IMG/VR virus record: IMGVR_UViG_3300011115_000889
Location: 1 to 52,558 of that record
Length of the DNA: 52,558 nt
Origin: a virus
Lineage: Duplodnaviria > Caudoviricetes
Direction: 5' to 3' (one strand)
Below, one piece after another: positions 12,878-31,145 of this stretch (the stretch's first letter is position 1; each line of letters begins with the position of its first letter). Below the pieces are notes generated by a model. The model searched no databases, was not told where the DNA came from, and saw nothing but the letters and a program-made list of their open reading frames with translations. A program made the position numbers and the translations under genes.

Positions 12878-12949
12878 CGAGCCACCTCAAGATAGTGCTT
12901 TTTGCAATGTATTATGCAAGAAGGTTTATTTTACTGTAAGGATGTGAAC

Positions 12950-14401: not shown

Positions 14402-14409
14402 GGGTAGCA

Positions 14410-15414
14410 ATGCCATTAGTCAGGAAAGCAAAATCCTCGGTACCTGCACCACCAGTTTTTAATGTAACAAAACAGCAGTTGTACAACATTATTCGTAATG
14501 CGTTGTATCGGGCTGGGCGAGTTGCTGATGCGGATTCGTTGGCTTCAGCGATTATTAACTTGCAACCAGATTTACTTGAGCAAGCATTATTAACTATTAA
14601 TGTTGATGCTATTGGGCAAATTATTCGTGATTCAATTACGGCAGTTATTAATAATGCTGGTGTTTTGGCTGGTCAGGAAATTAAACCACTTATTGAAGCG
14701 ACACCTGATTGGGGTAACGCTAACACTTTGACGGGTAAACCAAAGGGTGAGTTCACTTTTAACATTCATAATCCTGTAGCGGATTTGTATGCGGAGCGTC
14801 AGGCTGGTCGTTTGGTTACGGCTATTAATGATTCTATGCGTTTGGCTATTCGTCAGATTATTAGTGATTCTTTTAGTAAGGAAATTTCGGTTCCTTACAC
14901 TGCTAAAAAGTTGCGTCAAATTATTGGGTTGCATCCTCGTTGGGCACAGGCAGTTGACAAGTTTTTTGACCGTACCTATAAGGGTTTATTGAAGCAGGGT
15001 TTGAATCCTGAGAAAGCGGTTGAGAGAACGGATTTGTTGACGGATAGGTATCGTCAAAAATTGATTCGTGCCCGTGCCACAATGATTGCTCGTACCGAGA
15101 TTCAGATTGCTCAAAACATGGGTCGTCAGTTGGCTTGGCAACAGGCTGTTGATGGTGGTTGGGTTGCTGGTGATTCTATGAAACAGTGGCAAACTGTTTA
15201 TAAGAATAATGCTGGTGGACCTCCTTGCGATAAGTGTGCCCCATTAGACGGAGTTCAGGTGCGTTGGGATAGTGCTTTTGATAATGGGCTACTTATGCCA
15301 CCTGCTCATCCTCATTGTCGTTGTACGGCGTTCCTAGTGCCTCCTGACCGTGGTTTGAATGATGCTGAGTGGATTAGGACTGGGCAAATGAGGTATTCGG
15401 GTGAACAGGCATGA
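14410..15414 (+). CDS. MuF / SPP1 gp7-family head morphogenesis protein
   Basis: RA.MIARTE, K.W, CDKC..LDG, PPAHPHCRC. Confidence 0.9.
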   Translation: MPLVRKAKSSVPAPPVFNVTKQQLYNIIRNALYRAGRVADADSLASAIINLQPDLLEQALLTINVDAIGQIIRDSITAVINNAGVLAGQEIKPLIEATPDWGNANTLTGKPKGEFTFNIHNPVADLYAERQAGRLVTAINDSMRLAIRQIISDSFSKEISVPYTAKKLRQIIGLHPRWAQAVDKFFDRTYKGLLKQGLNPEKAVERTDLLTDRYRQKLIRARATMIARTEIQIAQNMGRQLAWQQAVDGGWVAGDSMKQWQTVYKNNAGGPPCDKCAPLDGVQVRWDSAFDNGLLMPPAHPHCRCTAFLVPPDRGLNDAEWIRTGQMRYSGEQA

Positions 15415-16577
15415 AATCTGTTTATGTAGTCGTTCCAGTTACTAAACATCTGGCTGGTCAACATGACCAATCTAGTCATGGCAATTGGTCTGGGTCGCCA
15501 AAACTGACTATCTTAAATGAAAAAGGTAGCGAGAACGAATTTCTAAATGAAAGTTTACGAGTTGTTAGGTATGAAGAAAAAGGTAAAAACCCAGTTGACT
15601 ATGTTCTTTTTGCAGACGGAAAATACAAAATTATTGTTGCTCCAAAGCCTACTGACGGAACTAATTTTACTGGTTATCGTGGCATAGAGAGTAAAGGAGT
15701 TGGGGTTTTAATTGCCGAGGGCCCAAAAGCAAATCATTTAAGACTTACCTCTAATCTTGATAATTATTTTACTGTCAACCAAATAGCAGTTAAACCAAGT
15801 CACCAACGCAGGGGATTGGCTTCAGCAATGCTTCAATTTCACCGTGACATGTACCCAGAAGCGAACATTCAACATTCAGATGCTTTAACTGAAGATGGAA
15901 AATCATGGGCAACTGTAGTTAAACATCTTGCAGGTCAACATGACCAATCAACTCACGGTAATTGGGCTGGTGCCGAAGGTTACAAATCTGCTTCATTAGA
16001 TGACTTACCAGCCCTAGACCTTAGCAGACTTGATTCAACAACAATGGATGCTCGTAACAATTATGTTGGTTTTGGGTATCAATGGATGAATGATTATCTT
16101 CGTAGTGGCAACATTGATGATACGGTTAGAATAATTTACAACGAACAAATCCCTAAAGAACAAGGAATTGCTCAAATTGAATCCTTAAAAAATGCTTTGT
16201 ATGAAACAGAAACAACACAAGATTTAACAGTTACTAGATGGAGTTCTGGAGCAAGTCTTTTTAGGCAACAAGTTTCTACAATGTCTGAAGAAGACATTAA
16301 AGGGCTTGTAGGTAAAACTTTTGAAGCAAAAGGTTTTACATCAACTTCTGCCCCAAATAGTTTGCATCAAAGTGTTAATGATTCCTTCAAAGCGTCTGCA
16401 ACGGTTTTTGCAAACATTCACATGCCAGCAGGTACGCACGGGGCAACTATGGGTAACGATGAAGAGGGCGAGTTCGTTATTGCCCCAAATACTACTTTTG
16501 TGGTTATGGGAGCAAAAAGGTTGGATGAAACTAGGATTGTGTTAGACCTTTTAGTGACGGGACAGGAAAATGGATAG
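15411..16577 (+). CDS. tagged polyprotein: GNAT acetyltransferase + VIP2-type ADP-ribosyltransferase
   Basis: 2 tags; IAVKPSHQRRGLASAML; Y..MNDYLR, VTR, GFTSTS, EEGEF. Confidence 0.85.
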   Translation: MKSVYVVVPVTKHLAGQHDQSSHGNWSGSPKLTILNEKGSENEFLNESLRVVRYEEKGKNPVDYVLFADGKYKIIVAPKPTDGTNFTGYRGIESKGVGVLIAEGPKANHLRLTSNLDNYFTVNQIAVKPSHQRRGLASAMLQFHRDMYPEANIQHSDALTEDGKSWATVVKHLAGQHDQSTHGNWAGAEGYKSASLDDLPALDLSRLDSTTMDARNNYVGFGYQWMNDYLRSGNIDDTVRIIYNEQIPKEQGIAQIESLKNALYETETTQDLTVTRWSSGASLFRQQVSTMSEEDIKGLVGKTFEAKGFTSTSAPNSLHQSVNDSFKASATVFANIHMPAGTHGATMGNDEEGEFVIAPNTTFVVMGAKRLDETRIVLDLLVTGQENG

Positions 16578-18492
16578 ATTTACTGATTCGTTCTTGTCTG
16601 AAGTTAAGGGTGATGAGGCTTTACGCCACCGTTTACGGGCAGAGGTTATTCTTGGGCGTTCTCTTTTAGTAAAGCATTTGGCAGGTCAACATGACCAGAG
16701 TTCGCACGGCAACTGGGCTGATGGTGATGGTTCAAAAGAAATAAGTATTGAGCAACTTGCATCTATCATTAATGCAAATAAACCATACGACAGTCTTGAT
16801 GTTTGGCGTAAAACTTTGCAAGATGTTTTAAAAGCCACGGGTAAAACTGGTAAACCTACTTTTGGTGACACTTCACAGGGTATGGAGTTGTGGCGAAGTT
16901 TTGAGCAAGGTTCTGCCTATGACTTAGAAACCGAAGATGAAATTAGTTTGTCTGCTGAAGATAAAATTAAACAATTTATGGCTTCTGAGTTGCCTTACAT
17001 TTCTATGGGTAGAAACGGTATTGGTCTTTATGGTGCCCACACTAAAAGTGAGGCTGTGACATGGAGTCGTGGAAACTTTGGTCAAATAGTAAAAATGGCT
17101 TTGAAGCCTGATGCAAAAATTTTAACTATTCCTTCTTCTGATGCAAATGTAGGTTTTGTTCTTGCAAATGCTGATTTTTTGGCACCTAGAATTGGTTTAC
17201 CAAATAAAACGGCATCTTTGTCAGACTTTAAAACAAGTTGGTTTTTTACCGACAAATCATCAATTGTGAATCTTATGGCTTTAGCAATGGGTTATGACGC
17301 AATTAATTTTAATCCTAGCATTTATTATCCAAATGGTGCTTTGCCTGACCGTGAAATTGTTGTGTTAAATGCTGGTGCTTTAATTGTTCAAAAACCTGAC
17401 ACAGTTAAAAAACATTATTTAGGTCAACATGACCAATCCACGCACGGTAACTGGGCACACGGAGCAGTTAACGATTTTGCTGAAACCACAACTTTTAAAA
17501 ATGCTGTCAAAAAATTGGCTAAAACTTATGCTGACAAAATAGACACCACTTCAGGTCAGTATGGTGGTAGTCGTTCAGAAGACAGATTAGTTCAAATTCT
17601 TCATGGCGATGCTTTTGCTAGTTCTGCTCTTGGAAAACAGTTACAACAGCAAGTTAAAGACGCTTATCCTCGCGATGCTGTTTTTCTTAAAACTGGTGGA
17701 ATTTTTAATAACTCTTTTCAAGGAGTTATTAATCCTAATTTTGTAACTGGCAAAGATTATCCTGTTGTGATGTATGAAGCGTTGCTTCGTAGGGTGTCTG
17801 ATGAAGTTGTTAAACAAGCCACTTTTGCCAAATTTGATGCTTCTGAGTTGCTTTATCAAAGTTTTATTGCCGATGATTTAAAAGCCTTGCAAAAAGATGG
17901 AAAAGTTTGTCAGGCAATGGACGAAAAATCGTTTACTGATTTGTTGAAAAGTGACGACCCAAGGTTTAAGACACAATTTGAAACAGGAAAAAGCAATGGT
18001 GCCTACAGCAAAATTGGTCGTATGGCTGGTGAGTTGCGTTCTCAAAGCATGCCTATGTCGGAACCTGTTTCCAAACGACCTATTTATGGCTATGTGGCTG
18101 AAAATGATTTTGATGAAAGCATTTTGATTGATGGACCTGAACAGTATGGTGGTATTCGGGTTGTGTTTAAAGATGATGTTAAAACTCGTACAACAATGTC
18201 GGTTGGGGATTCGTTGTCAACTGGTTGTGTCCCTATTTCTATGACTCAAAGTGAAATTACTCCTTTTGATGCTTGGCGAGCGTCTGACAGAATTTTGTAC
18301 AGCACGGCAAGGGATGAGGGTTGGAATAATGACACTTATGACATTGGGTATCTTAATGAGGGTAGTTATTTTGAATCTCAAATCCATGATGGTGTTAAGT
18401 TGAGCGATGTTGAGGCTATTTACATTCCTTCGGATAGTTTTGATGACATTAGTCCCCTTGTTCCCAAGGGAATTAGGGTGGTAGAGTATTAA
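16570..18492 (+). CDS. tagged polyprotein: ART-like domain + DUF3626-like domain
   Basis: 2 tags; GIGLYG..GYDAI..EIVVLN; RFKTQFETG.SNG, RPIYGY, QYG, GDS, YFESQIH. Confidence 0.75.
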   Translation: MDRFTDSFLSEVKGDEALRHRLRAEVILGRSLLVKHLAGQHDQSSHGNWADGDGSKEISIEQLASIINANKPYDSLDVWRKTLQDVLKATGKTGKPTFGDTSQGMELWRSFEQGSAYDLETEDEISLSAEDKIKQFMASELPYISMGRNGIGLYGAHTKSEAVTWSRGNFGQIVKMALKPDAKILTIPSSDANVGFVLANADFLAPRIGLPNKTASLSDFKTSWFFTDKSSIVNLMALAMGYDAINFNPSIYYPNGALPDREIVVLNAGALIVQKPDTVKKHYLGQHDQSTHGNWAHGAVNDFAETTTFKNAVKKLAKTYADKIDTTSGQYGGSRSEDRLVQILHGDAFASSALGKQLQQQVKDAYPRDAVFLKTGGIFNNSFQGVINPNFVTGKDYPVVMYEALLRRVSDEVVKQATFAKFDASELLYQSFIADDLKALQKDGKVCQAMDEKSFTDLLKSDDPRFKTQFETGKSNGAYSKIGRMAGELRSQSMPMSEPVSKRPIYGYVAENDFDESILIDGPEQYGGIRVVFKDDVKTRTTMSVGDSLSTGCVPISMTQSEITPFDAWRASDRILYSTARDEGWNNDTYDIGYLNEGSYFESQIHDGVKLSDVEAIYIPSDSFDDISPLVPKGIRVVEY

Positions 18493-18494
18493 TC

Positions 18495-19478
18495 ATGGAA
18501 CTAACCAAAGGTAGTGTTTACGCTGTAAGGGCTGACGGAGCCGAGTTAATTTTTGATTCCGTTGACGCTGACGGTTATCCATACGGCTATTTACGCCAAA
18601 ACAATGGCAAAACCAGCACTATTGGTTTATTTGATAAGTGGCAAAAGGTTGGCAATTGGACAGTTGTTCAGGCTTTCACCAAACACCTAGCAGGGCAACA
18701 TGACCAAAGTTCACACGGTAACTGGGCTAAAGTAAAAACGAGTGTTAGGCATGCTTTTGGCGTAAACGACCTTGTGCTGGAAAACGCTGATGTTCATGAA
18801 TCAAAAATTAACGGTTCAACTTTTGCAACTTATTTTGATAACAGGGACAACATTACTGAAGACCAAAAACGGGATGTGTTGGCTTTAGTTCACGATTTGC
18901 AAACAATTGCACCGCTATCACCTATGTCTGAGGTAAAAATTGTTATTAGTAATAGTGCCCTTTTTGATAACGAATTTGAACGCGGTTGGACTATTAATTT
19001 TTCTGAGCCAGAACGAATGGTATCAAGATTTGACGAAACAGTTGGCAGAACTGTTAGGGAAATGAAAAAACCTGCTATTCACCAAGTTATTATTGCGGTT
19101 CGCCCCGAAGACATGAATCATTATGCTGATGAAGATACTGCTCGCCAGAGTTGGATGCCTTCGGCAGGGGCTAAACAATTTTTTGCTATGGAATACTTTT
19201 TGGCTCACGAATGGGGTCACGCAACTGATTATGATGCACTATTTCATAAAGGTGGTGACGGAACAATGTCGGGAAGTGGTTACAAAGATGAAAAAACTAC
19301 AGGTTTGATGTTGATGGCTCACGAAGACCAGTTAAGTCCGTATGGTAAAACCGATACTGGCGAGGGTTATGCTGAAGCGTTTGCTGAATGGTTTATGACC
19401 GATGGTAAGTCTGAGATTCCTATCGTTAAGGCTTTGGCTAAAGAACATAATTGGGGTATGCAGTACAAATGGAAGTAG
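18495..19478 (+). CDS. tagged zincin metallopeptidase with N-terminal ~60-aa partner domain
   Basis: 1 tag; HEWGH, LSPYG..EGYAEAFAEW. Confidence 0.8.
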   Translation: MELTKGSVYAVRADGAELIFDSVDADGYPYGYLRQNNGKTSTIGLFDKWQKVGNWTVVQAFTKHLAGQHDQSSHGNWAKVKTSVRHAFGVNDLVLENADVHESKINGSTFATYFDNRDNITEDQKRDVLALVHDLQTIAPLSPMSEVKIVISNSALFDNEFERGWTINFSEPERMVSRFDETVGRTVREMKKPAIHQVIIAVRPEDMNHYADEDTARQSWMPSAGAKQFFAMEYFLAHEWGHATDYDALFHKGGDGTMSGSGYKDEKTTGLMLMAHEDQLSPYGKTDTGEGYAEAFAEWFMTDGKSEIPIVKALAKEHNWGMQYKWK

Positions 19479-19487
19479 TGATTTAGT

Positions 19488-21560
19488 ATGTTGCAGAGTC
19501 CCCCAATGATTTCGGGTCAAAAAATTAGTTGTACTTTTGGCTTAGATAAATCTGTTGAAAAACATTTACAAGGCCAGCACAATCAGTCAACTCACGGTTC
19601 TTGGGCTGACCACGCATGGGGTAATCGTTTTGAACCTGTTGCTGGTTGGAAACCATCAGATGATAAATCGCAGTATTTAACTTTTGAGTCCACTATCCGT
19701 GGTGTAAGAATTACAGCAAATTTTAAATCTTTACAGGATTTCAAAGTATCAAAAGAAAATGATGCAGAAATTCAAAAGTATGTAAATGCTGTTTTGTTAC
19801 AAGTAAATGAGTTGGCTGAACATGCTCCTTTGCCAAAAAATACTGTGCTTAGAATTTTTGTTGGTGATGAGGCTTTAGCGACTGCTCCTACAGCAAGCGG
19901 TGAACCAGTTCCAGTAGGAGTAGCAGGGTTGCATCGTGGTGGCTGGGATACGGTAGCCAACAAGTCAGGTTCGTTAATTTATGTTGCTTCTACTGAATTT
20001 TTTGATAAACCAGATTTTAGCAAAAGACCAACAGACAGTTTTATGCCATCTATGCAAAATGTTGAGTACAAAGGACAATACTGGTTGGCTCATGAGTACG
20101 GTCATGCTAAACAAATGCGAATAAATCAAACTAACAATGATGTTGACACAGCCAATACTTATGCACTTTGGCAAAGATGCAAACTTGATTTAAGCACTTA
20201 TGGGCAAAAAAATTCTCATGAAGGTTTTGCGGAAGCGTTTTCTGATTGGTTTTTGAGTAAAGGTAAAAGCGATAATCCAGCAACTTATCTTTATGCTTAC
20301 GAAGGTCAATGGGCTTTTGACCGACAACCTGAATACGGTCAAAATGAAGTGTTAAAAAGCAAAACCAATAAAGACAATACTGTTTACACAATTGAAAACA
20401 TTTGTGATTTTGGTGAAGGTTTAAATAAACCTATTGCTAAATCGGTGTTTATTGTTCCCCCGTTAAGTTTTGTTAAACATTTAGCAGGGCAACATGACCA
20501 AAGTTCACACGGTAACTGGGCAGATGGCGGACCTGTTGCTGAAGGTGAGTACGGTCAATGGGGTGCTGAACGCCAACGCATGATTTTGAGCATGAAAGAT
20601 AAGGGCCCAAACATGTCGTGGTTGAATCGAATTAAAGAGTTATCAGATGCTTCTGTTGAAATTGGGGATAGGGCTAGGGATTGGGTTGATGGTAAAAATA
20701 ACGCTTATTGGAAACTTCAGTTATTAAATTATTTGGATGTTCGTGCTGTTGAACATCAAGGGGATTCGTCACTTATTGAAGAGTTTACAGATAATTTTTA
20801 TCAAAGAAACGCTGGAAGAATTTTATTAGATGCTGGTGACGAGTTTGCAAGCGGATTAAAACGAACCCTTAAAGAAATTTATAACATGGATTACAATTAC
20901 ATTAATGGTAAAAGACAAGACGAAACCATTAAAAGCAGGATTTTAGATGTTGAAGTTAATTTAGATGAGGGCACTATTAATGTAGAGGGTGGTGTTTACA
21001 ATCAATTTGATGACCAAATTGGTGAATTTGAAAGAACACTTAACACGACCACTGGAGTTGTTTCACATGATGTTTTAAACATTTGGGATTCTGATTATAA
21101 CAATACTGGGTTTGGAACTGTTTTTATTACTCAATCCGAAAACTATTACATCAGTCACGGTTTCAATGCTATTACTTTAGATACGGCTTGGAATGGTGCT
21201 TATACATGGGCAAAAATGGGCTACGATTGGTCGGGAAATCATCCGCAGGATTGGCGAGATGTCAGAAAAAACTTAACTGACCGTTTAACTCTTATTCCAG
21301 ATGAGCCAGAAAATAAACCAATTAGGGACGACATTCAAACTATGATTACTCGGTTGTATGGGGATTCTTTGGCTTCAGATTTCCCAACTCCGTATGACAT
21401 TGCAATGGTTGGCTACGGCGATGGAACAAATGGGTTGGGCGGAAAAGATTTGACCATGTGGCTTGGCAAAAGCATTTTATCAAATCAAAGATACCATTAC
21501 AAAAAGAAGTTAAATGTTGCACCTCGGCAAATCATAAGTAAGGGAATTGATAATGAATAG
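19488..21560 (+). CDS. tagged polyprotein: zincin peptidase + GNAT-like domain
   Basis: 2 tags; HEYGH, LSTYG..EGFAEAF; YNNTGFGT, GAYTWAKMGYDW. Confidence 0.75.
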   Translation: MLQSPPMISGQKISCTFGLDKSVEKHLQGQHNQSTHGSWADHAWGNRFEPVAGWKPSDDKSQYLTFESTIRGVRITANFKSLQDFKVSKENDAEIQKYVNAVLLQVNELAEHAPLPKNTVLRIFVGDEALATAPTASGEPVPVGVAGLHRGGWDTVANKSGSLIYVASTEFFDKPDFSKRPTDSFMPSMQNVEYKGQYWLAHEYGHAKQMRINQTNNDVDTANTYALWQRCKLDLSTYGQKNSHEGFAEAFSDWFLSKGKSDNPATYLYAYEGQWAFDRQPEYGQNEVLKSKTNKDNTVYTIENICDFGEGLNKPIAKSVFIVPPLSFVKHLAGQHDQSSHGNWADGGPVAEGEYGQWGAERQRMILSMKDKGPNMSWLNRIKELSDASVEIGDRARDWVDGKNNAYWKLQLLNYLDVRAVEHQGDSSLIEEFTDNFYQRNAGRILLDAGDEFASGLKRTLKEIYNMDYNYINGKRQDETIKSRILDVEVNLDEGTINVEGGVYNQFDDQIGEFERTLNTTTGVVSHDVLNIWDSDYNNTGFGTVFITQSENYYISHGFNAITLDTAWNGAYTWAKMGYDWSGNHPQDWRDVRKNLTDRLTLIPDEPENKPIRDDIQTMITRLYGDSLASDFPTPYDIAMVGYGDGTNGLGGKDLTMWLGKSILSNQRYHYKKKLNVAPRQIISKGIDNE

Positions 21561-21786
21561 AGATACAAAAATGGCAACCATGAGTTCCGTTTATGATGCT
21601 TGGGTTTCAAAGTACAAAAATGTTGCTAGTTTTAATCCCGAAAACCCCACTTCTGAACAATCTTTAGATTTTCATGAAATGTGTTCTGAAGCAGTTGGTG
21701 GTAAAAAACTTACTGCTTATCCACCTGAACTTATGGACAATCTTATGAAATTGCCTTTCTATAGCATTGACCCTGCCGATAATTAA
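21547..21786 (+). CDS. small protein, candidate partner/immunity protein for the upstream GNAT-like domain
   Basis: 79-aa ORF overlapping the upstream stop; no tag. Confidence 0.6.
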   Translation: MIMNRDTKMATMSSVYDAWVSKYKNVASFNPENPTSEQSLDFHEMCSEAVGGKKLTAYPPELMDNLMKLPFYSIDPADN

Positions 21787-21848
21787 GCGAGTTGCCCTTT
21801 TGAGGTATTACCTTTGGGGTATTCTTGATTAGTTGTTGAGGAGGTTTT

Positions 21849-22589
21849 GTGTCACGCATTGCACGGCTCGCTAAATTTATTGGGCTTGTTGAGTCTTCTG
21901 ATGCTGTCCTGATTAAACATCTTGCTGGTCAACATGACCAATCTACCCATGGCAACTGGGCTGAAGATGCATTTGATGATTTAGCAACTTGGGCTGAAAC
22001 TGCCGACAGTGAAATTGCTACAGATTACGATAAAAGAGATGCAGTATGGAATAGAACCCTGCGACAACAAGTTAAAAACGGGTTTTCTGCTAAAACACAT
22101 CCTGAATTTTTGCCAGCAATTGAACTTTATCTTAGTGAAGACGGTTACGAAATTAATAAATTGTTGCGTACTGGTTTTGTTCGTGACTTTGTAACATTGA
22201 GTTTTAACGATGCTATTGATGGTCTTGACACCGCAATTGATGAGGCTCCACCATTAGAAAAACCTGTCATTGCCTATCGTGGAGTTAAAGGTGCTGGTCT
22301 TGATTTTTTTGAAAATTTAAAAATTGGTGATTCTTTTGAAGACAAAGGTTATGCATCAACAACTTTAAGTGCTACAACCGCAAGTGAAGATTTTGCTGGG
22401 GCTGATTATGGTGACGGAATGGTATTACAAATGCATTTACCAGAAGGAACTCAGTGTCTTTTTCCGTCTGAATTTGTTGGCGATGATGGTTTTACATGGT
22501 CTGAAAGAGAATTATTGTTGCCTAGAGATTCTATTTTCAAAGTAACTAACATTCGTGGTCGTATCATAGACATGGAAGTTGAGCAATGA
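21849..22589 (+). CDS. tagged VIP2-type ADP-ribosyltransferase
   Basis: 1 tag; YEINKLLR, AYRG, GYASTT, ERELLL (R-S-E). Confidence 0.88.
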   Translation: MSRIARLAKFIGLVESSDAVLIKHLAGQHDQSTHGNWAEDAFDDLATWAETADSEIATDYDKRDAVWNRTLRQQVKNGFSAKTHPEFLPAIELYLSEDGYEINKLLRTGFVRDFVTLSFNDAIDGLDTAIDEAPPLEKPVIAYRGVKGAGLDFFENLKIGDSFEDKGYASTTLSATTASEDFAGADYGDGMVLQMHLPEGTQCLFPSEFVGDDGFTWSERELLLPRDSIFKVTNIRGRIIDMEVEQ

Positions 22590-24727
22590 AAAATAAATTT
22601 TATTATGATTCACCCCAAGGTTTATCACTTGTAGTTTCTAAACACCTTCAAGGGCAACACGACCAAGCCACTCACGGTAACTGGGCTGGGCATCATGGGC
22701 AAGCAGTTGACCGTAAAAATACTGCCCAAGGCAATCCTTATCCTCATCCAATTCAAACCGCTTACGACAATGTTGTGGCTGGAAAAGAAGGAATTGTTAG
22801 CCCAATTGACGCTCCTGCATGGTTGGATGCTATGGCTGACCGTACCGATAATCCTGATTTAACTAATTTGGAAATCCTTGGTACGCAGTATTTTACTAAA
22901 GATAATTTGGGCATTATGCGTGACCACATGCCTCAGATTCCTCCTGATACTCAAGAGGCTTTTATTAAGGCTATGCAGGCCCGTGGTGTCCGAGTTGATT
23001 TGGTTGATGTTACGCCTTTTGGTTTGCATCCGATTCAGGCTGAAATTTCGGCTACTAAATCTGGAAAAATTTTTCGGAAAATGAAAAAAGAAGGAGTTGA
23101 CGATACTCCTATTGTTGTTTCTAGTGATGATTTTGTGATTGATGGGCATCATCGTTGGGCCGCTGGACTTTTCCTTGGTTTGTCCCCTAAGCATAGAAAC
23201 ATTAAATTAAAGGCTTTGCGTGTTGACATGCCACAGGAGCAGTTGCTGGATGTGGTTTTGGCGTGGAATAAGGCTGTGGGTATTTCCTCTATTGCTTTGG
23301 GTGCTGATGTAAAAGATTCTATGAAAAAGATGTTGGCGTTTGACATTGCGGTGTTAAAAGGTAAGATTAAATCAACCGAGGTTGAGAAACATCTTCAAGG
23401 TCAACACGACCAGTCAACTCACGGACGCAGGTTCAACACCGAAGTTGCACCAGAAGTCGTTCATGATGTGCTGGCTCAAGTAGCCGAAAACGGTGGATTA
23501 TCAATCAAGTTAACAGACGGCTCACTACCTCCTGACGGCTACATGGTGTCAAGGAATAGTGAAAAGTTTGGCACTGTTGTCATGGCATCGGATTTCTTTA
23601 ACGAGAAAAAAGGAGCCAAGATTCTGGGTGCGTTTTTGATTAAGAACAAGGCAGAGTTGGGTTCTGGTAGGGCTTATCTTGGTGTGTGGCATGAAACATC
23701 TAAGACGGTTAATGGTGTAACGGTTGAGATACCAAAAGACCAGCAACGAGTTCATTTGGATGTTACAGACAAAATTGTTAGCAAGAAGCAAGCAGTTTCG
23801 TTGGGTAGAAGGCGTAACCAAATTAGTATTTGGGATGTCGTAAACTTTGACGAGATTCAAACAGGAGGTACTGGTGGAACAGTCGAAAAAGGAAATTATA
23901 AACATAGCCTCATCCCCGAAACCGTTGAATCAGATGACGGACGAGGAAATTATGGATTGGGCGGAAAAGATTTACGGGAAGTTACCGAAGCCTCAGTAAT
24001 TGTTCAGGTTCCTGTTAGTTCTTTTTTTACTAAACACCTTCAAGGGCAACATGACCAAAGTTCACATGGTTCGTGGGCTGGTGGTTCCAAAATCCCAATG
24101 GTTGATGAGTTTGCTGATGCTTGGATAGGTGGAACAGACAAGTATCCATTTGCTTATCTTGATGAAATTCGTGGTGCTTACAGGGTATTAACAGATGTTG
24201 CAGATAATTTTTATCCAAAAATGGATGAAAATGGCAGGGTGCAACCAAATTATAAAGAAGTTTTTGATTCAACTAAACAAATTCTTTTAGCCTTGGCAGA
24301 TGCTAAACCATTGAGTGAAACAATGTATAGGGGTTTATCTTTAAGTCAATTTGATTCTGGGCATGTTGAAAAATTGACAACTGTTGGTTCTACATTTAAA
24401 GAAGACCTTGCATCTTGGACTCCTGATGAAGGATTGGCAAAAACTTTTTCGCAAGAACGCTATGGTAGAAAAGCGGAAACATCTATTTTGATAAAAATTG
24501 ATGGGTTGCGTGGGATACCTTTGACTCCTCATACAAGCAATAAAAGCGAAGAAGTGTTAAGTGGCAAAGAAGTCATTGCTTCTGGTTCATACACAGTTTC
24601 TAAAGTTATAAAAACTAGCAATAATTCTTATGAAGTGACAGTGATTCAAAATCAGTTGCCCTATGACCCATTGGTTGTTGCGTCTAAAAATTTCAATACA
24701 GAAGAAGAGGGCGTTTTCATAAGATGA
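22586..24727 (+). CDS. tagged polyprotein: ParB/Srx-like + unknown domain + ADP-ribosyltransferase
   Basis: 3 tags; PIVVSSDDFVIDGHHRWAA; YLGVWH..HLDV..NQISIWD; MYRGL, LASWT, KEVI. Confidence 0.78.
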   Translation: MKNKFYYDSPQGLSLVVSKHLQGQHDQATHGNWAGHHGQAVDRKNTAQGNPYPHPIQTAYDNVVAGKEGIVSPIDAPAWLDAMADRTDNPDLTNLEILGTQYFTKDNLGIMRDHMPQIPPDTQEAFIKAMQARGVRVDLVDVTPFGLHPIQAEISATKSGKIFRKMKKEGVDDTPIVVSSDDFVIDGHHRWAAGLFLGLSPKHRNIKLKALRVDMPQEQLLDVVLAWNKAVGISSIALGADVKDSMKKMLAFDIAVLKGKIKSTEVEKHLQGQHDQSTHGRRFNTEVAPEVVHDVLAQVAENGGLSIKLTDGSLPPDGYMVSRNSEKFGTVVMASDFFNEKKGAKILGAFLIKNKAELGSGRAYLGVWHETSKTVNGVTVEIPKDQQRVHLDVTDKIVSKKQAVSLGRRRNQISIWDVVNFDEIQTGGTGGTVEKGNYKHSLIPETVESDDGRGNYGLGGKDLREVTEASVIVQVPVSSFFTKHLQGQHDQSSHGSWAGGSKIPMVDEFADAWIGGTDKYPFAYLDEIRGAYRVLTDVADNFYPKMDENGRVQPNYKEVFDSTKQILLALADAKPLSETMYRGLSLSQFDSGHVEKLTTVGSTFKEDLASWTPDEGLAKTFSQERYGRKAETSILIKIDGLRGIPLTPHTSNKSEEVLSGKEVIASGSYTVSKVIKTSNNSYEVTVIQNQLPYDPLVVASKNFNTEEEGVFIR

Positions 24728-25422
24728 GTGGATTAAAAGAAAGAATGTTTTTGTCTTTAATAGATGAAGAAAACGATGATGTAACTAAACATCTTGAGGG
24801 CAAACATGACCAGAGTTCACATGGTAATTGGGCTAAAAATAACGGGGTTATTCATAAACCAAATAATTTGAGTGGTGTAGCAATACCTTGGAAAACCAGT
24901 ACAGATTGGAGCGATGTTGTTCCAACGGGTGCCCCTGATGATAAACAAATTGAGTTTGGGGCAGGGTTAACTTTAGATTCTGCACCATTAGCATCAGTTG
25001 GACAAGGGAAAATTTTTACTGATAGTCAAGAAATTTCAAATTATGTTGACGGGGTTTTTGCTAAATACGGTTACGGTGACAGGGTTTGGAAATTGTATCC
25101 TGACGAAGCAAATCAATACTTGGTTGATGGTATTGAGGCTGGAGTTACCCGTGGCGATGCTCCAGAAGGTCATGTTTTGCATGGTGGGAACATTCCTGTA
25201 TTAATTTACAAACCTTCGGGTGTTAGCCAGTTCGTTTTGTTGCATGAAATTTCTCACATTCTTGAAGGCAACTGGACAGAGGGCAATGTGAATCATGGTG
25301 GTCACAATTTGCCGTTTTTGGAAACTTGGAAATACCTTTTACGCAATGAAGGCTTGGACAAACAGGCTAATGTTTTGGATTTGTTTACTTACAAAACCGA
25401 TGGCAATGGGGTGTTTTCATGA
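24724..25422 (+). CDS. tagged SprT-like metallopeptidase
   Basis: 1 tag; LLHEISH...GHNLPF. Confidence 0.75.
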   Translation: MSGLKERMFLSLIDEENDDVTKHLEGKHDQSSHGNWAKNNGVIHKPNNLSGVAIPWKTSTDWSDVVPTGAPDDKQIEFGAGLTLDSAPLASVGQGKIFTDSQEISNYVDGVFAKYGYGDRVWKLYPDEANQYLVDGIEAGVTRGDAPEGHVLHGGNIPVLIYKPSGVSQFVLLHEISHILEGNWTEGNVNHGGHNLPFLETWKYLLRNEGLDKQANVLDLFTYKTDGNGVFS

Positions 25423-26261
25423 TTTTAGATGAAGTAACTTTTGATGTGGTGTACCCAGATTTGGGTGTTAAGCATGGTGTCAGAGTTGAAAAGCATTTGC
25501 AAGGCAAGCATGACCAATCCAGCCATGGCAGTTGGGCACAAGGTACGCATTTAAATGCGGTCAAAGGTGGGCACAGTTTAACTACTAGGGAAATGCTGGA
25601 GTTACGAAAAAATACTTATGACCCATTGCAAAATAAACTTTATTATGCTGAAAGTTTGTTAAAAGAAAAAGTAATGGGTAAAGACCATTACGATGAATTA
25701 GAAAAAAATCAACCACAAGCACCACAAAGTAGTGATTTTGAATCACGGGACGATTATGTAAAAGCGTTTAAAGATTACAAAAAAGCCCACACTGTTTGGG
25801 CTAGAGAAATACATAAATTTGTTGTTTCGGATTTAGGTAAAGAAAATTTGAATGGCACTTTATCTGGAGTTAAAAAATACATTAATGCTGTTATTTATGA
25901 CCCTTGGTTTGTTGAAAATTTTGGTGACGGAAAACAGTTAAGAAGTAAGTTGGAAATTAAATTAAGTAATTCAATGACTTTGGCTGGGTCGTATTCTTAT
26001 GGTGTGATTGTTAGCCGCATTACTGGCATTGAAAAAACTTCAAGCGAGTTTAAGTTAGATACGCATTATACTTTTAGTGAAAACACTATTTTGCATGAGA
26101 TTGCTCACTATGCCACGGCTATTAGTGAGGATACTCCTCATGCGTCCCACGGTGTTGAGTTTGCCCAAAATCTTGTAACGCTTGCTGACCATTATTGGGG
26201 TGCAGAGTTGGGTGCTAGTTTGCGTAATTTTTATGTTCAAGAAGGTGTTTTAAATGGATAA
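25419..26261 (+). CDS. tagged SprT-like metallopeptidase
   Basis: 1 tag; TILHEIAH...SHGVEF. Confidence 0.78.
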   Translation: MILDEVTFDVVYPDLGVKHGVRVEKHLQGKHDQSSHGSWAQGTHLNAVKGGHSLTTREMLELRKNTYDPLQNKLYYAESLLKEKVMGKDHYDELEKNQPQAPQSSDFESRDDYVKAFKDYKKAHTVWAREIHKFVVSDLGKENLNGTLSGVKKYINAVIYDPWFVENFGDGKQLRSKLEIKLSNSMTLAGSYSYGVIVSRITGIEKTSSEFKLDTHYTFSENTILHEIAHYATAISEDTPHASHGVEFAQNLVTLADHYWGAELGASLRNFYVQEGVLNG

Positions 26262-26358
26262 TTATTTAATCGTTTCTAACATTGACCCTATTGACCCTGA
26301 TTGCATTCCTGAGCGAATAAAACTTGAAGAATTGCCTGAGCCGAGAAAACCAGAATAG
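26254..26358 (+). CDS. 34-aa acidic peptide (MDNYLIVSNIDPIDPDCIPE...), candidate peptidase inhibitor
   Basis: Hand translation; overlaps the upstream stop, GAAGG RBS. Confidence 0.5.
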   Translation: MDNYLIVSNIDPIDPDCIPERIKLEELPEPRKPE

Positions 26359-26395
26359 TTAATTTTGTTTGCTATTCTGTCGGGGAGGAGTTCAA

Positions 26396-28402
26396 ATGTC
26401 ATTTGATTTAACAAATTTAAGTAATGCTAATTTGGAGGCATTGCATAAGTCTTTGCATGCTGATGTTTCTGACCCTGTAAAAGTTCAAGCCCATCACCTT
26501 GTCACAACCGAGTTGCTGGTTCGTGGTTTAGACCATGGACATAATGGCGATGAGTGGAATCGTGCCGTTATTGAAATTGGTGTTGAAAATGATGTGCCTG
26601 TTAATAAGGCGTTTGATGGCATTCCTTCTGATGTGGTTGATACGGTCAATGTTGAGTTGGGTTATCCTGAATCTGTTTCTAAAACCACTATTTTGACTGT
26701 TGATGGTTACACCTTAAAGTTTGATACTTTCAAAAAAGATGGTGAACCTGAAGATAGATTGAACCCTACTCAATCTGCTGTGTATGAGTTTTTGGAATCT
26801 TTAACGGAAACTGTTGGCAAATTTAACCAGAGTTCGGATGCTAACGGGGCACATTACATGGAAGAAAACCCGTTTGTTGACGAAGGTTTGATGTGTGCTA
26901 ATTGCGTCTTTTTTCAAGGCGGTGGCGGTTGTGAAATCGTTGAGGGTCAGATTGACCACATGGCTTTGTGTAAGTTTTGGATTATTCCTGAAAACCTTTT
27001 AAATGGAATGTCCAAGCATCTTCAGGGTCAGCATGACCAGAGAAGTCATGGTCTTTGGTCACATACTACCTCTTCTGTTAGTGCATCTGATTTGAACAAA
27101 ATTGGTTTGTTTATGAATAAACGCACTATGCGTTTGAATTACAATGAAGGTTATGACGCTGGTGCTGAGTTAATACGCACTAATCCTGATGCTCAAAAAT
27201 TGCCAGAAGTTTTGGCTCGCCATAACGATTTGCATGCAACATTAACTAAGTTCAAAACAAGCACTGATGAATTATTTAATGTGCATGTTTCTGAAGCCAT
27301 TATTACTGATGCAGGTTTTTTTGATGGCTTGAATGGAAATAAGCGTCAGTTCCGCCGTCTTTTGGTTGACCCACTTCCTTGGGTAAATGGGATTCCTTTG
27401 ATGAAACATCTTTCTGGTCAACACGACCAGTCCAGTCACGGCTCTTGGGCTAAGGGCAATTTATCAACCCACGACTGGGGTTATGGAAGTGACCGTCCTG
27501 AAGTTTTAAGTAAACCGCAATCAATTGAAGTTGGTGGCGAAACTATTACTGCTTCAAGTTCTGGTTTGTGGCATTATTTGATGAGCGATGGTCGTGGTGG
27601 TTGGGAGTTAACTCCTGAACGCAAAGAATTTCATGATAAACTTATTGCAGAGGCTTTAGATGGAGTTCCTAAATCTTCTGACCCTACTTTTACTATGATG
27701 GGTGGCGGTGGTGGTTCTGGTAAAGGAACCGTTCAGAAAAAACCTCAAACAGTTAAATTGGCTAAAGATGCTGGAGTTCCTTTGCCTCCTGAAGGCATGG
27801 CTGTAAAAATTGATGCTGACGAAATTAAAGCAAAATTACCAGATTTTAAAGTTTATTTGGATGCTGGCAGAAAAGCAGATGTGGCTGGTTGGACACATGA
27901 AGAATCTTCAATTATTGGTAAAGCAATTCAAGCGGCCGCTATTAAGGCTGGTAAAGATGTTTTCTTGGATGGTACTGGTAATTCAAGTGCAAGTAGTTTA
28001 AATAAAAAAATTACTCAAGCCCGTGATGCTGGTTACAAAGTTAATGGTTGTTATGTAAGTGCAAGTATTGATTTGGCTTGGAAACAAAACATGCAAAGGT
28101 CTGTAGAAGACCCTAATCGTGGTCTTGTTCCTGCCCCTAATTTCTTAAATAATCACAAATCGGTTTCAGCAATTATTCCTCAAATGGCTAGTCAGTTTGA
28201 TAATTTTGTGCTGTTTGATACTAATCATGATACTCGCGTTGAGGGTGCCCCTGCTGAACTAATTGCAACTGCTTCCCGTGGTGGTAGAATAAACATTGTT
28301 AATAGTTCTTTGTGGAAAACATTTATTAACAAAGCAAGTGATAAAACAACTGTTCAAGATTTGGATGCTCGGTATGTTCAATTTCAGAAAGGGAATAAAT
28401 AA
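26396..28402 (+). CDS. polyprotein: His-rich N-domain + HiPIP-like 4-Cys domain + tagged unknown domain + tagged zeta-toxin P-loop kinase
   Basis: Start after GGAGGAG; CANC..CEIV.G.I..LCKFW; 2 tags; MGGGGGSGKGT, IDADEIK, HEES, DGT. Confidence 0.8.
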   Translation: MSFDLTNLSNANLEALHKSLHADVSDPVKVQAHHLVTTELLVRGLDHGHNGDEWNRAVIEIGVENDVPVNKAFDGIPSDVVDTVNVELGYPESVSKTTILTVDGYTLKFDTFKKDGEPEDRLNPTQSAVYEFLESLTETVGKFNQSSDANGAHYMEENPFVDEGLMCANCVFFQGGGGCEIVEGQIDHMALCKFWIIPENLLNGMSKHLQGQHDQRSHGLWSHTTSSVSASDLNKIGLFMNKRTMRLNYNEGYDAGAELIRTNPDAQKLPEVLARHNDLHATLTKFKTSTDELFNVHVSEAIITDAGFFDGLNGNKRQFRRLLVDPLPWVNGIPLMKHLSGQHDQSSHGSWAKGNLSTHDWGYGSDRPEVLSKPQSIEVGGETITASSSGLWHYLMSDGRGGWELTPERKEFHDKLIAEALDGVPKSSDPTFTMMGGGGGSGKGTVQKKPQTVKLAKDAGVPLPPEGMAVKIDADEIKAKLPDFKVYLDAGRKADVAGWTHEESSIIGKAIQAAAIKAGKDVFLDGTGNSSASSLNKKITQARDAGYKVNGCYVSASIDLAWKQNMQRSVEDPNRGLVPAPNFLNNHKSVSAIIPQMASQFDNFVLFDTNHDTRVEGAPAELIATASRGGRINIVNSSLWKTFINKASDKTTVQDLDARYVQFQKGNK

Positions 28403-29181
28403 TGGATAGTCGTATTCTTGAACTGATGTCGCAAGATGTTCAGGCTGGCGTAACAGAAAATGACAGTATTTATGTTACTGATGCTGAATCTAGTGAAGCG
28501 TGGAAAAGTTTAGAATCCATCTATCAAAATCTAAAAAATTCAAACATTGTTATGGCGATTCCTGCGGAATGGGATAATGCTGATTATGACCTTGACATGC
28601 TTTACGGTAAAGGATTTTTAGATAAGTATGCAGACACAGAATCAGTTGAAAAAATGTCTTTGGTTTCCAAGGCTGTTAGTGAAGACCGATACACCCTAGG
28701 TCCAATGTATGTTCCTGACCGTGTTGATGCTCATGGTGAGTGGACAAGTTCTGAAGAGTTGCAAAAATCGGTTTGGGATTATGTTCGTAAAGATGACCGC
28801 CGTATCCGTTTACAGCACAATAAAGATGTTGTGGCTGGTGAATGGGTTGAAGTCATGGCTTGGCCTTACGAAGTTTCAGTTCCTATGCAAAAGTCTGATG
28901 GTTCTATGGAAGATGTTACTTTCCCAAAGGACACTGTTTTCCTTGGTGTTGTTTGGGAACCTTGGGCTTGGGAAATGGTGAAGGCTGGCAAGTTGTTGGG
29001 TTATTCCATTGGTGGTCGTGCCCAGCGTCTTGAAGTTGATTTACCAGTTGCTAAAGAAGATGGTTCATCTACCGTGTCGGGTCCTACAGTGAACACTGTT
29101 CATGTGGATACTGTTATGGGTGGGCAGAAAAAGAAGCCCAAAAAAGATGTAAAGGTGACTGACAAAGATGTTTCTGACTAG
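28402..29181 (+). CDS. XkdF-like prohead serine protease with ~85-aa N-terminal extension
   Basis: RYTLGPMYVPDRVDAHGEW, RLQH, W..VKAGKLLGYSIGG. Confidence 0.85.
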   Translation: MDSRILELMSQDVQAGVTENDSIYVTDAESSEAWKSLESIYQNLKNSNIVMAIPAEWDNADYDLDMLYGKGFLDKYADTESVEKMSLVSKAVSEDRYTLGPMYVPDRVDAHGEWTSSEELQKSVWDYVRKDDRRIRLQHNKDVVAGEWVEVMAWPYEVSVPMQKSDGSMEDVTFPKDTVFLGVVWEPWAWEMVKAGKLLGYSIGGRAQRLEVDLPVAKEDGSSTVSGPTVNTVHVDTVMGGQKKKPKKDVKVTDKDVSD

Positions 29182-29665
29182 CGATAGTGATTATGTTCCT
29201 TTTGGTTCTGTAAATAAGTCTGTGGCTGATGTTGCGTCACTTTTGCGTACCACTTTGTCTGATGTTGTAACTTTTTACAATCGTGCCCATGGGTTTCATT
29301 GGAATGTTAAGGGTTCTGATTTTGCTCAGTATCATGAACTTTTTGAATCCATTTACGAAGATGTTTACAGTTCAATTGACCCTCTTGCTGAAAACATGTT
29401 AAAACTTGGCGTGGATGCCCCATTTAAGTTGTCTGATTTTATTGCTTACCGAACTTTGCCAGAAACCACTATTGGTTCTGCTGATGACCCCCGTTCTATG
29501 GCATCAGATTTGCAGAAGGCAAACCTTCAACTGATTAACACATTAAACATGGCTTTCACTTCTGCAAACTCGTCTAATGAGCAGGGTGTGGCTAATTTTC
29601 TTGCTGAACGCATTGACATGCACAAAAAGTGGGATTGGCAACTTCGTTCAAGTTTGGGGATGTAA
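29168..29665 (+). CDS. dps: Dps / mini-ferritin
   Basis: AHGFHWNVKG..F..YHELFE.IY..D.LAE...HKKW.W.L ferroxidase residues. Confidence 0.93.
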   Translation: MFLTSDSDYVPFGSVNKSVADVASLLRTTLSDVVTFYNRAHGFHWNVKGSDFAQYHELFESIYEDVYSSIDPLAENMLKLGVDAPFKLSDFIAYRTLPETTIGSADDPRSMASDLQKANLQLINTLNMAFTSANSSNEQGVANFLAERIDMHKKWDWQLRSSLGM

Positions 29666-29859
29666 TGCAAATTTTTAAGGTCGGCACTTCAGTTCGTTAT
29701 CGTGAATCTGGTCGTGTGTATCATGCCATTGTTACTGGTGTAACTAATCAAACCACTTTAAATTTGCGTATCGGTAATGGTGCAACCAAAAAAGTAGTCA
29801 CGGGTGCAACCAAAGTTGACCCAACTGGTACCACGACTGGTTTTTATCAGGGTCGTTAA
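29665..29859 (+). CDS. small virion-region protein
   Basis: 64 aa from MQIFKVG; TAATG coupling to dps. Confidence 0.6.
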   Translation: MQIFKVGTSVRYRESGRVYHAIVTGVTNQTTLNLRIGNGATKKVVTGATKVDPTGTTTGFYQGR

Positions 29860-29962
29860 ATCCGACACGCCCAAAGTCGAACCCTCAATGTAATTGATTT
29901 GTGTTAATTTTGAGCAAGTCAAGATTTGCAGTTAATTCTGCATGTTCAGAACAGAGGATGTT

Positions 29963-30733
29963 ATGGCTCGTACAACAACTCGCAAAATGGTTAATCTCGA
30001 CATTGAGGAAACCAGTGGCGTTGACCGTCCTGCACATTTGCATGATGGTTGGTTGGTTATGAAGTCTGCTAATACGGAATCTGTTAACGAACTCCTTGAA
30101 TCATCCGTTATCAAACAGGAGGAATCAATGTCGGAAACCATTGAAACCCGTCTTGAAGAAGCAATGAACTTGCTTCAAAAGGCAGAAGAAAGAATTGCTG
30201 AACTTGAGGAAGCAACAGAGGTTGACGCAGAAGTTGAGGCTCCTGCTGATGAAACCGATGAAGAAGTAATCAAATCAGCCCCAGAGCCTGTGCAGAAGGC
30301 TTTTGAAGTTTTGCGTAAGCAAGCGGAAGAAGCAGTTGCTAAGGCTGAAGAAGTTGAAGCCGTTTTGAAATCAGAGCGTGATGCCCGTGCAGATGCAGAA
30401 GCAGTTGCTAAGGCTCGTTCATGGTCACACCTTTCACTAGATGCAGAAAATGTTGGACCTGCCCTTCGTCAGTTGGCAGAAACCAATGAAGTTCTTGCAA
30501 AATCTGTTGAAGCAGTCCTTGAGAGCGTTAATGCTCAGGCTGAATCAGCAAACATTTTTGCCGAAATTGGTCGCACTTCAGCCAATACGGGAAACGCTTT
30601 CTCTCAGATGGAATCAATGGCTAAGTCCATGGTTTCTGCTGGTGAAGCAAACACATTTGAACAGGCTTTTGCTGAAATTGCATCAGCCGAACCGTCATTG
30701 TACGCACAATACCAAAACGAGAAAGGTGCTTAA
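29963..30733 (+). CDS. capsid scaffolding protein
   Basis: ETSGVDRPAH N-motif, acidic coiled coil, many [VILM]-x-K-[SA] sites; precedes the capsid genes. Confidence 0.75.
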   Translation: MARTTTRKMVNLDIEETSGVDRPAHLHDGWLVMKSANTESVNELLESSVIKQEESMSETIETRLEEAMNLLQKAEERIAELEEATEVDAEVEAPADETDEEVIKSAPEPVQKAFEVLRKQAEEAVAKAEEVEAVLKSERDARADAEAVAKARSWSHLSLDAENVGPALRQLAETNEVLAKSVEAVLESVNAQAESANIFAEIGRTSANTGNAFSQMESMAKSMVSAGEANTFEQAFAEIASAEPSLYAQYQNEKGA

Positions 30734-30739
30734 TTAACC

Positions 30740-31132
30740 ATGGCATACGAATTCAGTAATTACAGCGTAAAGATAACACTTGTTGCAGGTGCAGACCTTT
30801 CCGCTTTACAGTACAACTTTGTTAAGTTGAACTCCAGTGGTCAGGCAATTGCTATTGCGGCCGCGACAGATGTACCTGTTGGCGTTCTTCAGAATGCTCC
30901 ACTTTCAGGTCAAGAAGCAGAAGTTCTAATTGTTGGTGGAACCAAAATTGTTGCTGGTGCTTCAATTTCTCTACCTAGTGCAATTGGTACTGGTGCTACA
31001 GGTAAGGCAGTTGCTCTAACTACTGCTGATACCACAAAGTATGTTGTCGGTTCATTGATTTCTGCTTCTGGAGCAGACGGAAATGTTGTTACAGCCGTTG
31101 TCAATTGTGCCAACGCTACACGGGCTAACTAA
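30740..31132 (+). CDS. capsid decoration/cement protein (DUF2190-like)
   Basis: AGADLS..QY.FVKL, GVLQNAP..G.EA.V. Confidence 0.75.
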   Translation: MAYEFSNYSVKITLVAGADLSALQYNFVKLNSSGQAIAIAAATDVPVGVLQNAPLSGQEAEVLIVGGTKIVAGASISLPSAIGTGATGKAVALTTADTTKYVVGSLISASGADGNVVTAVVNCANATRAN

Positions 31133-31145
31133 GAGGAGTTAACTA

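Follow-up and report, generated by a model that had tools for sequence, protein, structure and literature searches.

Lysine junctions before a widespread tag in phage head genes: putative cutting sites of capsid cargo and their link to the head protease family

How are chains of unrelated enzymes, encoded in the midst of a phage head operon, turned into working proteins, if they are cut at all? The question is raised by the complete IMG/VR virus record IMGVR_UViG_3300011115_000889, the genome of an uncultured tailed phage (52,558 bases; the window). Its head module spans 12902-32123 on the + strand, according to Pfam, PHROG and the translations, and its genes are ordered as a Mu-type portal, a MuF-like protein, nine packed open reading frames (ORFs) at 15411-28402, an XkdF-type protease, a Dps/ferritin-like protein, a scaffold, a decoration-like protein and the major capsid protein (MCP). 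The nine ORFs encode the putative cargo, and the modules in them are headed by copies of a short tag, each of which is preceded by a hydrophobic residue, any residue and Lys (Phi-x-K). Comparison of sequences suggests that the XkdF-type head protease probably cuts after this triplet, which would free modules with an N-terminal His.

A six-frame scan with the pattern H..G.H[DN]Q..HG gave exactly 15 matches, all on the + strand and all inside the nine ORFs (Table 1). The tag has the form H-[LY]-x-G-[QK]-H-[DN]-Q-x-x-H-G in the window and can be summarised as H-Phi-x-G-x-H-D-Q-x-[ST]-H-G. Each copy is preceded by [VLFM]-x-K, so that Phi before the tag is V, L, F or M. In genome order the triplets are VTK, VVK, LVK, VKK, FTK, VEK, FVK, LIK, VSK, VEK, FTK, VTK, VEK, MSK and LMK, identical to those listed in an initial annotation of the sequence. 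The 15 modules in the nine ORFs include ADP-ribosyltransferases, a GNAT-like module, four with an HExxH motif, a zeta-toxin-like kinase and several without a family match. The first module of cargo ORF 6 carries a DGHHR motif and may be ParB-like. Directly after MuF, five of the nine ORFs hold two or three tagged modules, and unrelated effector domains within one polypeptide are what defines a polyvalent protein. The leaders before the first tags range from 12 to 216 residues and are mutually dissimilar.

Whether the triplet belongs to the tag can be judged where the tag is missing. Cargo ORF 9 begins with a Cys-rich domain (26369-27016) that is homologous to the N-terminal domain of the protease in four other phages (L042, L032, L105 and L111). 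In the window the domain ends in ...CKFWIIPENLLNGMSK/HLQG, the tag following (a slash marks a putative cut here and below), and in the four proteases it ends in ...CKFWIIPEDLMSHAMTK/ASD, with no tag after the AMTK/ASD boundary. The triplet is therefore an element separate from the tag, since a homologous boundary has the one and lacks the other. The Cys-rich domain carries …CANCVFFQGGGGC…CKFWIIPE…, and no family was found for it.

It could be supposed instead that Phi-x-K is only the first part of the tag and that the chains are uncut polyvalent proteins, the tag being a linker or a loading signal. The Lys and the hydrophobic residue are indeed conserved together with the tag, and the accessible part of Iyer et al. 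2017 (PMC5512222) describes multidomain virion proteins with cases that are moved or packaged full length. The tagless boundary speaks against this, as does the recurrence of the triplet at the edges of the protease domain and throughout the scaffold.

The protease of the window matches PF14550, not PF04586, over residues 86-211 (45.7 bits, cut-off 24; E 7.9e-12). Among 18 aligned homologues His111 is invariant and Ser202 is kept in at least 90%, which makes them candidates for the catalytic residues. Shortly before the domain start (RYTLGPMYVP), at a distance of 6-11 residues, the homologues have SLVSK/A, SYVSK/S, YEVSK/A, YELNK/S, YGVTK/A, TLVSK/A, TLISK/A or FIK/A, and gp18 of Arthrobacter phage Wheelbite has DLTK/A at the same position. 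The stretch upstream of these triplets is 85 to about 470 amino acids (aa) long, and different groups have unrelated sequences there. The domain is followed in the homologues by PVAK/E, PVNK/E, PVSK/D, EVEK/E, IEK/S or MEK/A/N. In a structure model of the protease (mean predicted local distance difference test score, pLDDT, 58.5) the putative self-cut sites lie in segments 54-94 and 203-259, where pLDDT is below 50. A complex prediction of residues 86-225 with a 32-residue tag segment scored 0.02 and 0.14 (mark 0.32), which has no bearing either way. Neither Foldseek with the model (E ≤ 0.001) nor phmmer against PDB sequences, where matches were at chance level only, added a relative.

The C-terminal tail of the protease (29080-29178) combines VHVDT[IV]M (VHVDTVM in the window) with a Lys-rich run, KKKPKK, and is kept in most homologues. 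It is possible that this tail is an element that brings the protease into the procapsid. Some catalogue genes named 'RNA ligase' or 'DNA methyltransferase' match the window protease over their C-terminal part (L001 14510-15631, which is Wheelbite gp18; phrog_14859, phrog_1530). Those names cover the N-terminal cargo domain only and overlook the protease.

The triplet is also abundant in the scaffold. The initial annotation had named sites in the scaffold, around the protease domain (VEK84/M, VSK90/A, VAK218/E), in the Dps leader (VNK17/S) and at the MuF N-terminus (VRK6/A), and all are present. The full set in the scaffold is VMK41/S, VIK58/Q, LQK80/A, VIK111/S, VQK119/A, LRK126/Q, VAK134/A, VLK143/S, VAK157/A, LAK187/S and MAK228/S, which accounts for 11 of the 13 Lys in the protein, each with V, L or M at position -2. 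Counts of [VILFM]xK[SA] were compared with 500 residue shuffles per protein. The scaffold has 9 against 0.7 expected, a number reached in 0/500 shuffles, the protease 4 against 0.9 (p ~0.01), Dps 2 against 0.4 (p 0.07) and MCP 3 against 1.0 (p 0.07). Genes outside the head, tail and cargo classes have 7 against 6.5. The excess is large in the scaffold, moderate in the protease and absent for sites after cargo domains. All 16 scaffold homologues found by phmmer have 7-11 Phi-x-K[SAQ] sites against 0.8-1.9 expected (0/300 shuffles each), with W[LV][VI]MK/S, [IM]K/S.PE, LAK/S and [ML]AK/S among the aligned sites, and three scaffold-position ORFs in further XkdF contigs have 8 against 1.1, 10 against 1.9 and 9 against 1.4. 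As homologues, these scaffold proteins are not independent trials.

An excess of this kind could also arise from amphipathic helices, the likeness to the residues before the tag then being a coincidence. Two other proteins of the window show one, with 21 [VILFM]xK against 12.0 in 40115-41614 and 7 Phi-x-K[SA] against 2.9 in 41627-43390. In the scaffold, however, the pattern is specific to Lys, a hydrophobic residue standing at -2 of 11/13 K, 11/45 E and 1/10 D, and specific to that offset, since at the others it precedes or follows at most 4/13 K. The residue after Lys is S, A or Q in 11/13, and the sites are conserved in the alignment. Helices as the whole cause are thus very unlikely.

The N-terminus of the scaffold (29942-30070) has a conserved motif, ETSGVD.PAHLH.GW[LV]VMK/S, common to Wheelbite gp23 (L001). 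In a distant jumbo-phage relative (L145 2014-2922) the motif is looser, VS.VG.PA, with FLLYK/S kept after it.

If the triplet is read by the protease, the junction might be expected to follow the protease, and to some extent it does. Among 210 distinct IMG/VR copies, 176 tags are directly preceded by K, 17 by R, 7 by F, 4 by E and 3 by A. A V, I, L, F or M stands at position -3 in 67% of the copies, compared with 18-36% for the eleven remaining upstream positions. All 44 loci with several tags have a single junction residue throughout, as do 81 of the 82 multi-tag proteins from a profile search. Proteases were sought in 50 records, a chosen set of all 29 non-K and 21 K-type records. Apart from these, phmmer placed an XkdF protease in 27 K-type loci; 6 of the 21 further K-type records also contained one, and none of the 29 non-K records did, so that the junction residue is K in 33/33 records with this protease. 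Of the 50 records, 16 yielded an HK97-type S78 protease. These were 11 of the 14 R-type records, 1 A-type and 4 K-type, which gives R in 11/16. When all loci were scanned with a local S78 profile, 10 R-type and 2 K-type loci matched. The link of junction to protease is a lead with some weight rather than a tree-corrected test, given few lineages and chosen records. A search for S77 proteases was silent in control genomes too and is uninformative, and Pfam gave no protease on ten ORFs of one F-type contig. The capsid delta domains of the R-type phages with S78 share a conserved stretch, GE[IV]R/S..FE.R/D, from which the cut position is not assignable.

That the junction changes to R, F, E or A with the tag constant, and that it tracks the protease family, is a further difficulty for uncut chains with Phi-x-K as a mere part of the tag, and that explanation is held to be unlikely. 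The tag remains constant across phages with XkdF, S78, ClpP-type and unidentified proteases, and is therefore probably not the protease recognition element. Its role is probably independent of the protease, to judge from the same comparison.

The tag itself is widespread among phages. A degenerate DNA pattern of it was found in at least 118 stretches of IMG/VR contigs and in only 24 stretches of GTDB species genomes, with Streptosporangium longisporum JCM 3106 and Ktedonobacter racemifer DSM 44963 as candidate prophage carriers. A profile built from the 15 tags of the window matched 700 representative proteins at E ≤ 0.001 among 1.84 billion, 174 of them at E ≤ 1e-10, and this total is a lower bound because single-tag proteins score too low. 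Two of these proteins, P0004 (7,059 aa, 19 tag-profile stretches) and P0001 (3,023 aa, 10 stretches), far exceed the cargo ORFs of the window in length. No match was obtained at E ≤ 1 or E ≤ 10 by tblastn of two tag segments against INPHARED, although queries of 22-23 residues forbid inferring absence from cultured phages. Wheelbite has a homologous scaffold, protease and capsid protein, and no HDQ tag in the 21-kb stretch examined. No paper was found that contains any of six tag strings or describes the tag, subscription journals and supplementary files lying outside the search.

Conservation was assessed from 526 profile-defined copies in the best 150 proteins. The His residues at positions 1, 6 and 11 are kept in 478/478, 505/507 and 506/506 aligned copies, Gln in 523/526 and Asp in 473/526. 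The median distance between tags is 267 residues. None of the counted tags starts a protein, the first one always having 4 residues or more in front of it, and there is no stop codon within 12 codons upstream of any of the 210 viral copies. A domain-sized stretch almost always lies downstream. Judged by this placement, the tags are headers of modules.

The near-invariance of the three His, the Asp and the Gln would also suit a different agent of cutting, namely the tag itself with a bound metal, or the HExxH metallopeptidase modules of the cargo in place of the head protease. Four modules have HExxH, with weak matches to SprT-like and ATLF, and autoprocessing of such proteins by zincin-like domains is predicted in the accessible part of Iyer et al. 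2017 (PMC5512222). Cutting by the cargo leaves unexplained why the same triplet stands in the scaffold and at the protease edges, and why the junction residue follows the head protease family. It appears improbable.

For the tag, a role in loading, retention or a later step is more likely than one in protease recognition. The stand-alone cargo ORFs of the window share nothing besides the tag, and loading into the procapsid is thus its simplest role. The pattern His-x4-His-Asp-Gln-x2-His would fit a metal site. The initial annotation proposed that a new N-terminal His could, with the other His residues, form such a site or a recognition signal after maturation; an N-terminal His of this kind invites comparison with histidine-brace or ATCUN-like sites. 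One may go further and imagine a metal switch gated by maturation, in which the cut frees the first His of the tag and this, with the two other His and the Asp, holds the module in the filled capsid or readies it for exit through the tail, in common to phages with different proteases; this is a highly tentative idea that we think will probably prove wrong.

Several observations weigh against a cut after Phi-x-K by the XkdF-type protease. As to the junction, the four K-type records with S78 show that protease family does not fix the junction residue. The lineages, counted by eye, are about 7 for R-type and at least 10 for K-type, and the F- and E-type records gave no match to PF14550, PF04586, PF03420 or PF00574. 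Tags within a phage are paralogues, and the shared K and the uniformity within a locus may be inherited rather than selected. As to the counts, a comparison of head with tail proteins, proposed in the initial annotation, came out only in part. The head class has 21 [VILFM]xK[SA] against 5.1 expected, but an excess is seen in the tail class too (29 against 14.0), which owes it to the tape-measure-like 40115-41614, with 6 against 2.2, and to 41627-43390. The former (phrog_167) has a hydrophobic residue at -2 of 21/36 Lys. Head and tail proteins therefore do not separate cleanly, and in helical proteins some of the signal may have other reasons; the excess in these two proteins may reflect helical bias or real processing. 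Sites after cargo domains, also claimed earlier, do exist (VLK290/S, IAK318/S and ISK685/G in 19488-21560, VEK435/G in 22586-24727), but apart from the tags the cargo ORFs have 13 against 10.6 expected, which is chance level. Phi-x-K/A at the MuF N-terminus is found in only some homologues and counts as not supporting. Processing of the MCP N-terminus at YMQK25/A was considered and rejected, K being present in 1/11 sequences and the site not conserved. The fold match of the protease is modest: VIA-align of the low-confidence model gave T4 gp21 (5jbl_B) at Z 6.7, with a root-mean-square deviation of 3.0 over 99 residues, where Z < 8 is not decisive, and herpesvirus proteases at Z 3.5-5.0. No cleavage products of this or related phages were found in what was searchable, and no published cleavage specificity for the PF14550 family in the literature searched. 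The N4 virion RNA polymerase is a cited example of a virion protein packaged or transferred uncut, in the accessible part of Iyer et al. 2017 (PMC5512222).

What the initial annotation claimed of the protease is thus partly supported. Cutting after Phi-x-K is supported indirectly by several independent comparative lines, namely the triplets at the protease edges, the tagless boundary, the scaffold homologues and the junction-protease link, and is not supported by the cargo-domain sites, the MCP or MuF.

The observed order of genes, their families, the tags, the shuffle statistics and the conserved triplet with its link to protease family lead us to infer a course of loading, cutting, retention and injection. 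The tagged proteins would be loaded into the procapsid, inside which the XkdF-type serine protease (putatively through His111 and Ser202) would be activated and would cut after Phi-x-K. The scaffold would be chopped at up to 11 sites, the protease would trim itself at both edges of its catalytic domain and the Dps leader would be removed. The cargo chains would be separated at every tag, each module then starting with the first His of the tag, and the modules would remain in the head and enter the host along with the DNA.

The stop of MuF overlaps the first cargo ORF by 4 nucleotides (nt), and MuF in the window carries no effector, so this is not a MuF-effector fusion. A fusion of MuF, tag and cargo, with the tag directly after the MuF domain, is present in six relatives (L110, L079, L100, L061, L058 and L118). 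In L063 a protease domain, a Dps domain, a tag and a zeta-like kinase lie within a single ORF of 676 aa at the locus edge, and because of this fusion Dps is probably capsid cargo too. Two small untagged ORFs, 21547-21786 (79 aa), directly upstream of an ADP-ribosyltransferase ORF, and 29629-29859 (76 aa), occupy the only sizeable gaps of the head operon. Further downstream, the head-completion genes are separated from the major tail gene by an exonuclease-like gene (34580-35776; phrog_284, E 6.3e-56).

Table 1. Features of the head module, in genome order. Tags are given with the triplet before the slash; positions are nucleotides of the window.
Feature	Position	Strand	Basis and remarks
Portal protein	12902-14401	+	Pfam Portal_Mu, E 4.6e-40
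MuF-like minor head protein, untagged	14410-15414	+	Pfam Phage_Mu_F, E 1.4e-09
VRK6/A near MuF N-terminus	14419-14427	+	Seen in part of homologues only
Cargo ORF 1: 12-aa leader, tag, GNAT-like, tag, ADP-ribosyltransferase	15411-16577	+	ADPrib_exo_Tox, E 3.5e-12; weak Acetyltransf_7; tags aa 13, 172
Tag 1, VTK/HLAGQHDQSSHG	15438-15482	+	Six-frame scan
Tag 2, VVK/HLAGQHDQSTHG	15915-15959	+	Six-frame scan
Cargo ORF 2: two tagged modules	16570-18492	+	No Pfam family at E ≤ 0.01; tags aa 36, 282
Tag 3, LVK/HLAGQHDQSSHG	16666-16710	+	Six-frame scan
Tag 4, VKK/HYLGQHDQSTHG	17404-17448	+	Six-frame scan
Cargo ORF 3: 63-aa leader, tag, HEWGH (HExxH) module	18495-19478	+	Translation; no Pfam or PHROG family
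Tag 5, FTK/HLAGQHDQSSHG	18675-18719	+	Six-frame scan
Cargo ORF 4: tag, HEYGH module, linker (VLK290/S, IAK318/S), tag, second module	19488-21560	+	Translation; weak ATLF match below cut-off
Tag 6, VEK/HLQGQHNQSTHG	19554-19598	+	Six-frame scan
Tag 7, FVK/HLAGQHDQSSHG	20469-20513	+	Six-frame scan
Cargo ORF 5: leader, tag, ADP-ribosyltransferase module	21849-22589	+	Pfam ADPrib_exo_Tox, E 1.7e-16
Tag 8, LIK/HLAGQHDQSTHG	21909-21953	+	Six-frame scan
Cargo ORF 6: three tagged modules, first with DGHHR motif	22586-24727	+	No Pfam family at E ≤ 0.01; tags aa 20, 269, 484
Tag 9, VSK/HLQGQHDQATHG	22634-22678	+	Six-frame scan
Tag 10, VEK/HLQGQHDQSTHG	23381-23425	+	Six-frame scan
Tag 11, FTK/HLQGQHDQSSHG	24026-24070	+	Six-frame scan
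Cargo ORF 7: leader, tag, HEISH (HExxH) module	24724-25422	+	Translation; no Pfam or PHROG family
Tag 12, VTK/HLEGKHDQSSHG	24781-24825	+	Six-frame scan
Cargo ORF 8: leader, tag, SprT-like (HEIAH) module	25419-26261	+	Pfam SprT-like, E 1.9e-4, below cut-off
Tag 13, VEK/HLQGKHDQSSHG	25485-25529	+	Six-frame scan
Cargo ORF 9: untagged Cys-rich N-terminal domain (aa 1-216), tag, module, tag, zeta-toxin-like kinase	26369-28402	+	Pfam Zeta_toxin, E 1.3e-19
Tag 14, MSK/HLQGQHDQRSHG	27008-27052	+	Six-frame scan
Tag 15, LMK/HLSGQHDQSSHG	27398-27442	+	Six-frame scan
XkdF-type prohead serine protease; domain ~aa 95-210, His111, Ser202 (GYSIGG)	28402-29181	+	Pfam Peptidase_S78_2, PF14550
Putative protease self-cut site VEK84/M		+	In a segment with pLDDT below 50
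Putative protease self-cut site VSK90/A	28663-28671	+	Triplet conserved in homologues
Putative protease self-cut site VAK218/E	29047-29055	+	Triplet conserved in homologues
Dps/ferritin-like protein; leader ending VNK17/S (nt 29210-29218)	29168-29665	+	Pfam Ferritin, E 3.9e-14
Scaffolding protein, 11 Phi-x-K sites	29942-30733	+	phrog_13547; position before decoration-like gene and MCP
Decoration-like small head protein	30740-31132	+	Weak Pfam XM1_gp53_minor_capsid match; phrog_673
Major capsid protein	31146-32123	+	phrog_1005, E 6.2e-102

If the proposed course is true, a large set of uncultured phages has a modular means of enzyme delivery in common, in which any enzyme behind a 12-residue header and a protease-matched junction would travel in the capsid and be set free as a protein of its own. 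The conversion of long 'polyvalent' proteins into working units would then be explained. Metagenomes could be searched by a rule of sequence for virion-borne anti-host or anti-defence enzymes, and a tool would be gained for putting proteins into phage capsids. Because junction and protease family are linked, the specificity of uncharacterised head proteases could perhaps be read from sequence alone.

Phage T4 offers a parallel, its internal proteins and Alt being capsid enzymes that are encoded with the head genes and matured by gp21 at a short motif. A short N-terminal capsid-targeting signal is lost on cutting there, and the cut is after Glu. The cargo of the window, whose genes also lie among the head genes, would likewise travel in the capsid and be processed at a short motif by the prohead protease. 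The window differs in that the tag follows the putative cut and would be kept by the module, where the T4-type signal is N-terminal and removed. It differs also in its XkdF protease, in having Lys rather than Glu before the putative cut and in up to three modules per ORF. The propeptides of T4 target proteins to the prohead core, according to the accessible part of one account (PMC10052503).

Another parallel is found in the ejection proteins of the giant phages SPN3US and phiKZ. In the same account, gp245 of SPN3US cleaves after A-x-E, favours Ser at the following position and also processes itself, and propeptides carry several copies of its motif (PMC10052503). As far as that text goes, SPN3US and phiKZ resemble the window in the P3-x-P1 layout, the preference for Ser, the several motif copies and the self-cutting of the protease, the last being putative in the window. 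They differ in an S77-type protease, a cut after Glu, the removal of long propeptides and the lack of a common header tag. In HK97 the S78 protease (gp4) cuts at K103/S104, as given in the accessible part of another report (PMC10275583). The cut after Lys before a small residue, putative in the window, and the destruction of scaffold function would be common to both. HK97 has no separate scaffold and no cargo, and the window protease belongs to PF14550, not PF04586. Multidomain effectors, among them ADP-ribosyltransferases and zincin-like peptidases, are described beside portal and MuF genes and predicted to be packaged and injected (PMC5512222, PMC9503650), and the polyvalent, MuF-fused or portal-fused effectors of Iyer et al. 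resemble the cargo of the window in this position. The accessible parts of these papers describe neither a common header tag nor a protease-matched junction, and the cargo ORFs of the window are separate from MuF. By these comparisons, the window differs from known systems in a widespread header tag that would be retained after cutting, in a junction that appears matched to the protease family and in the use of an XkdF-type protease.

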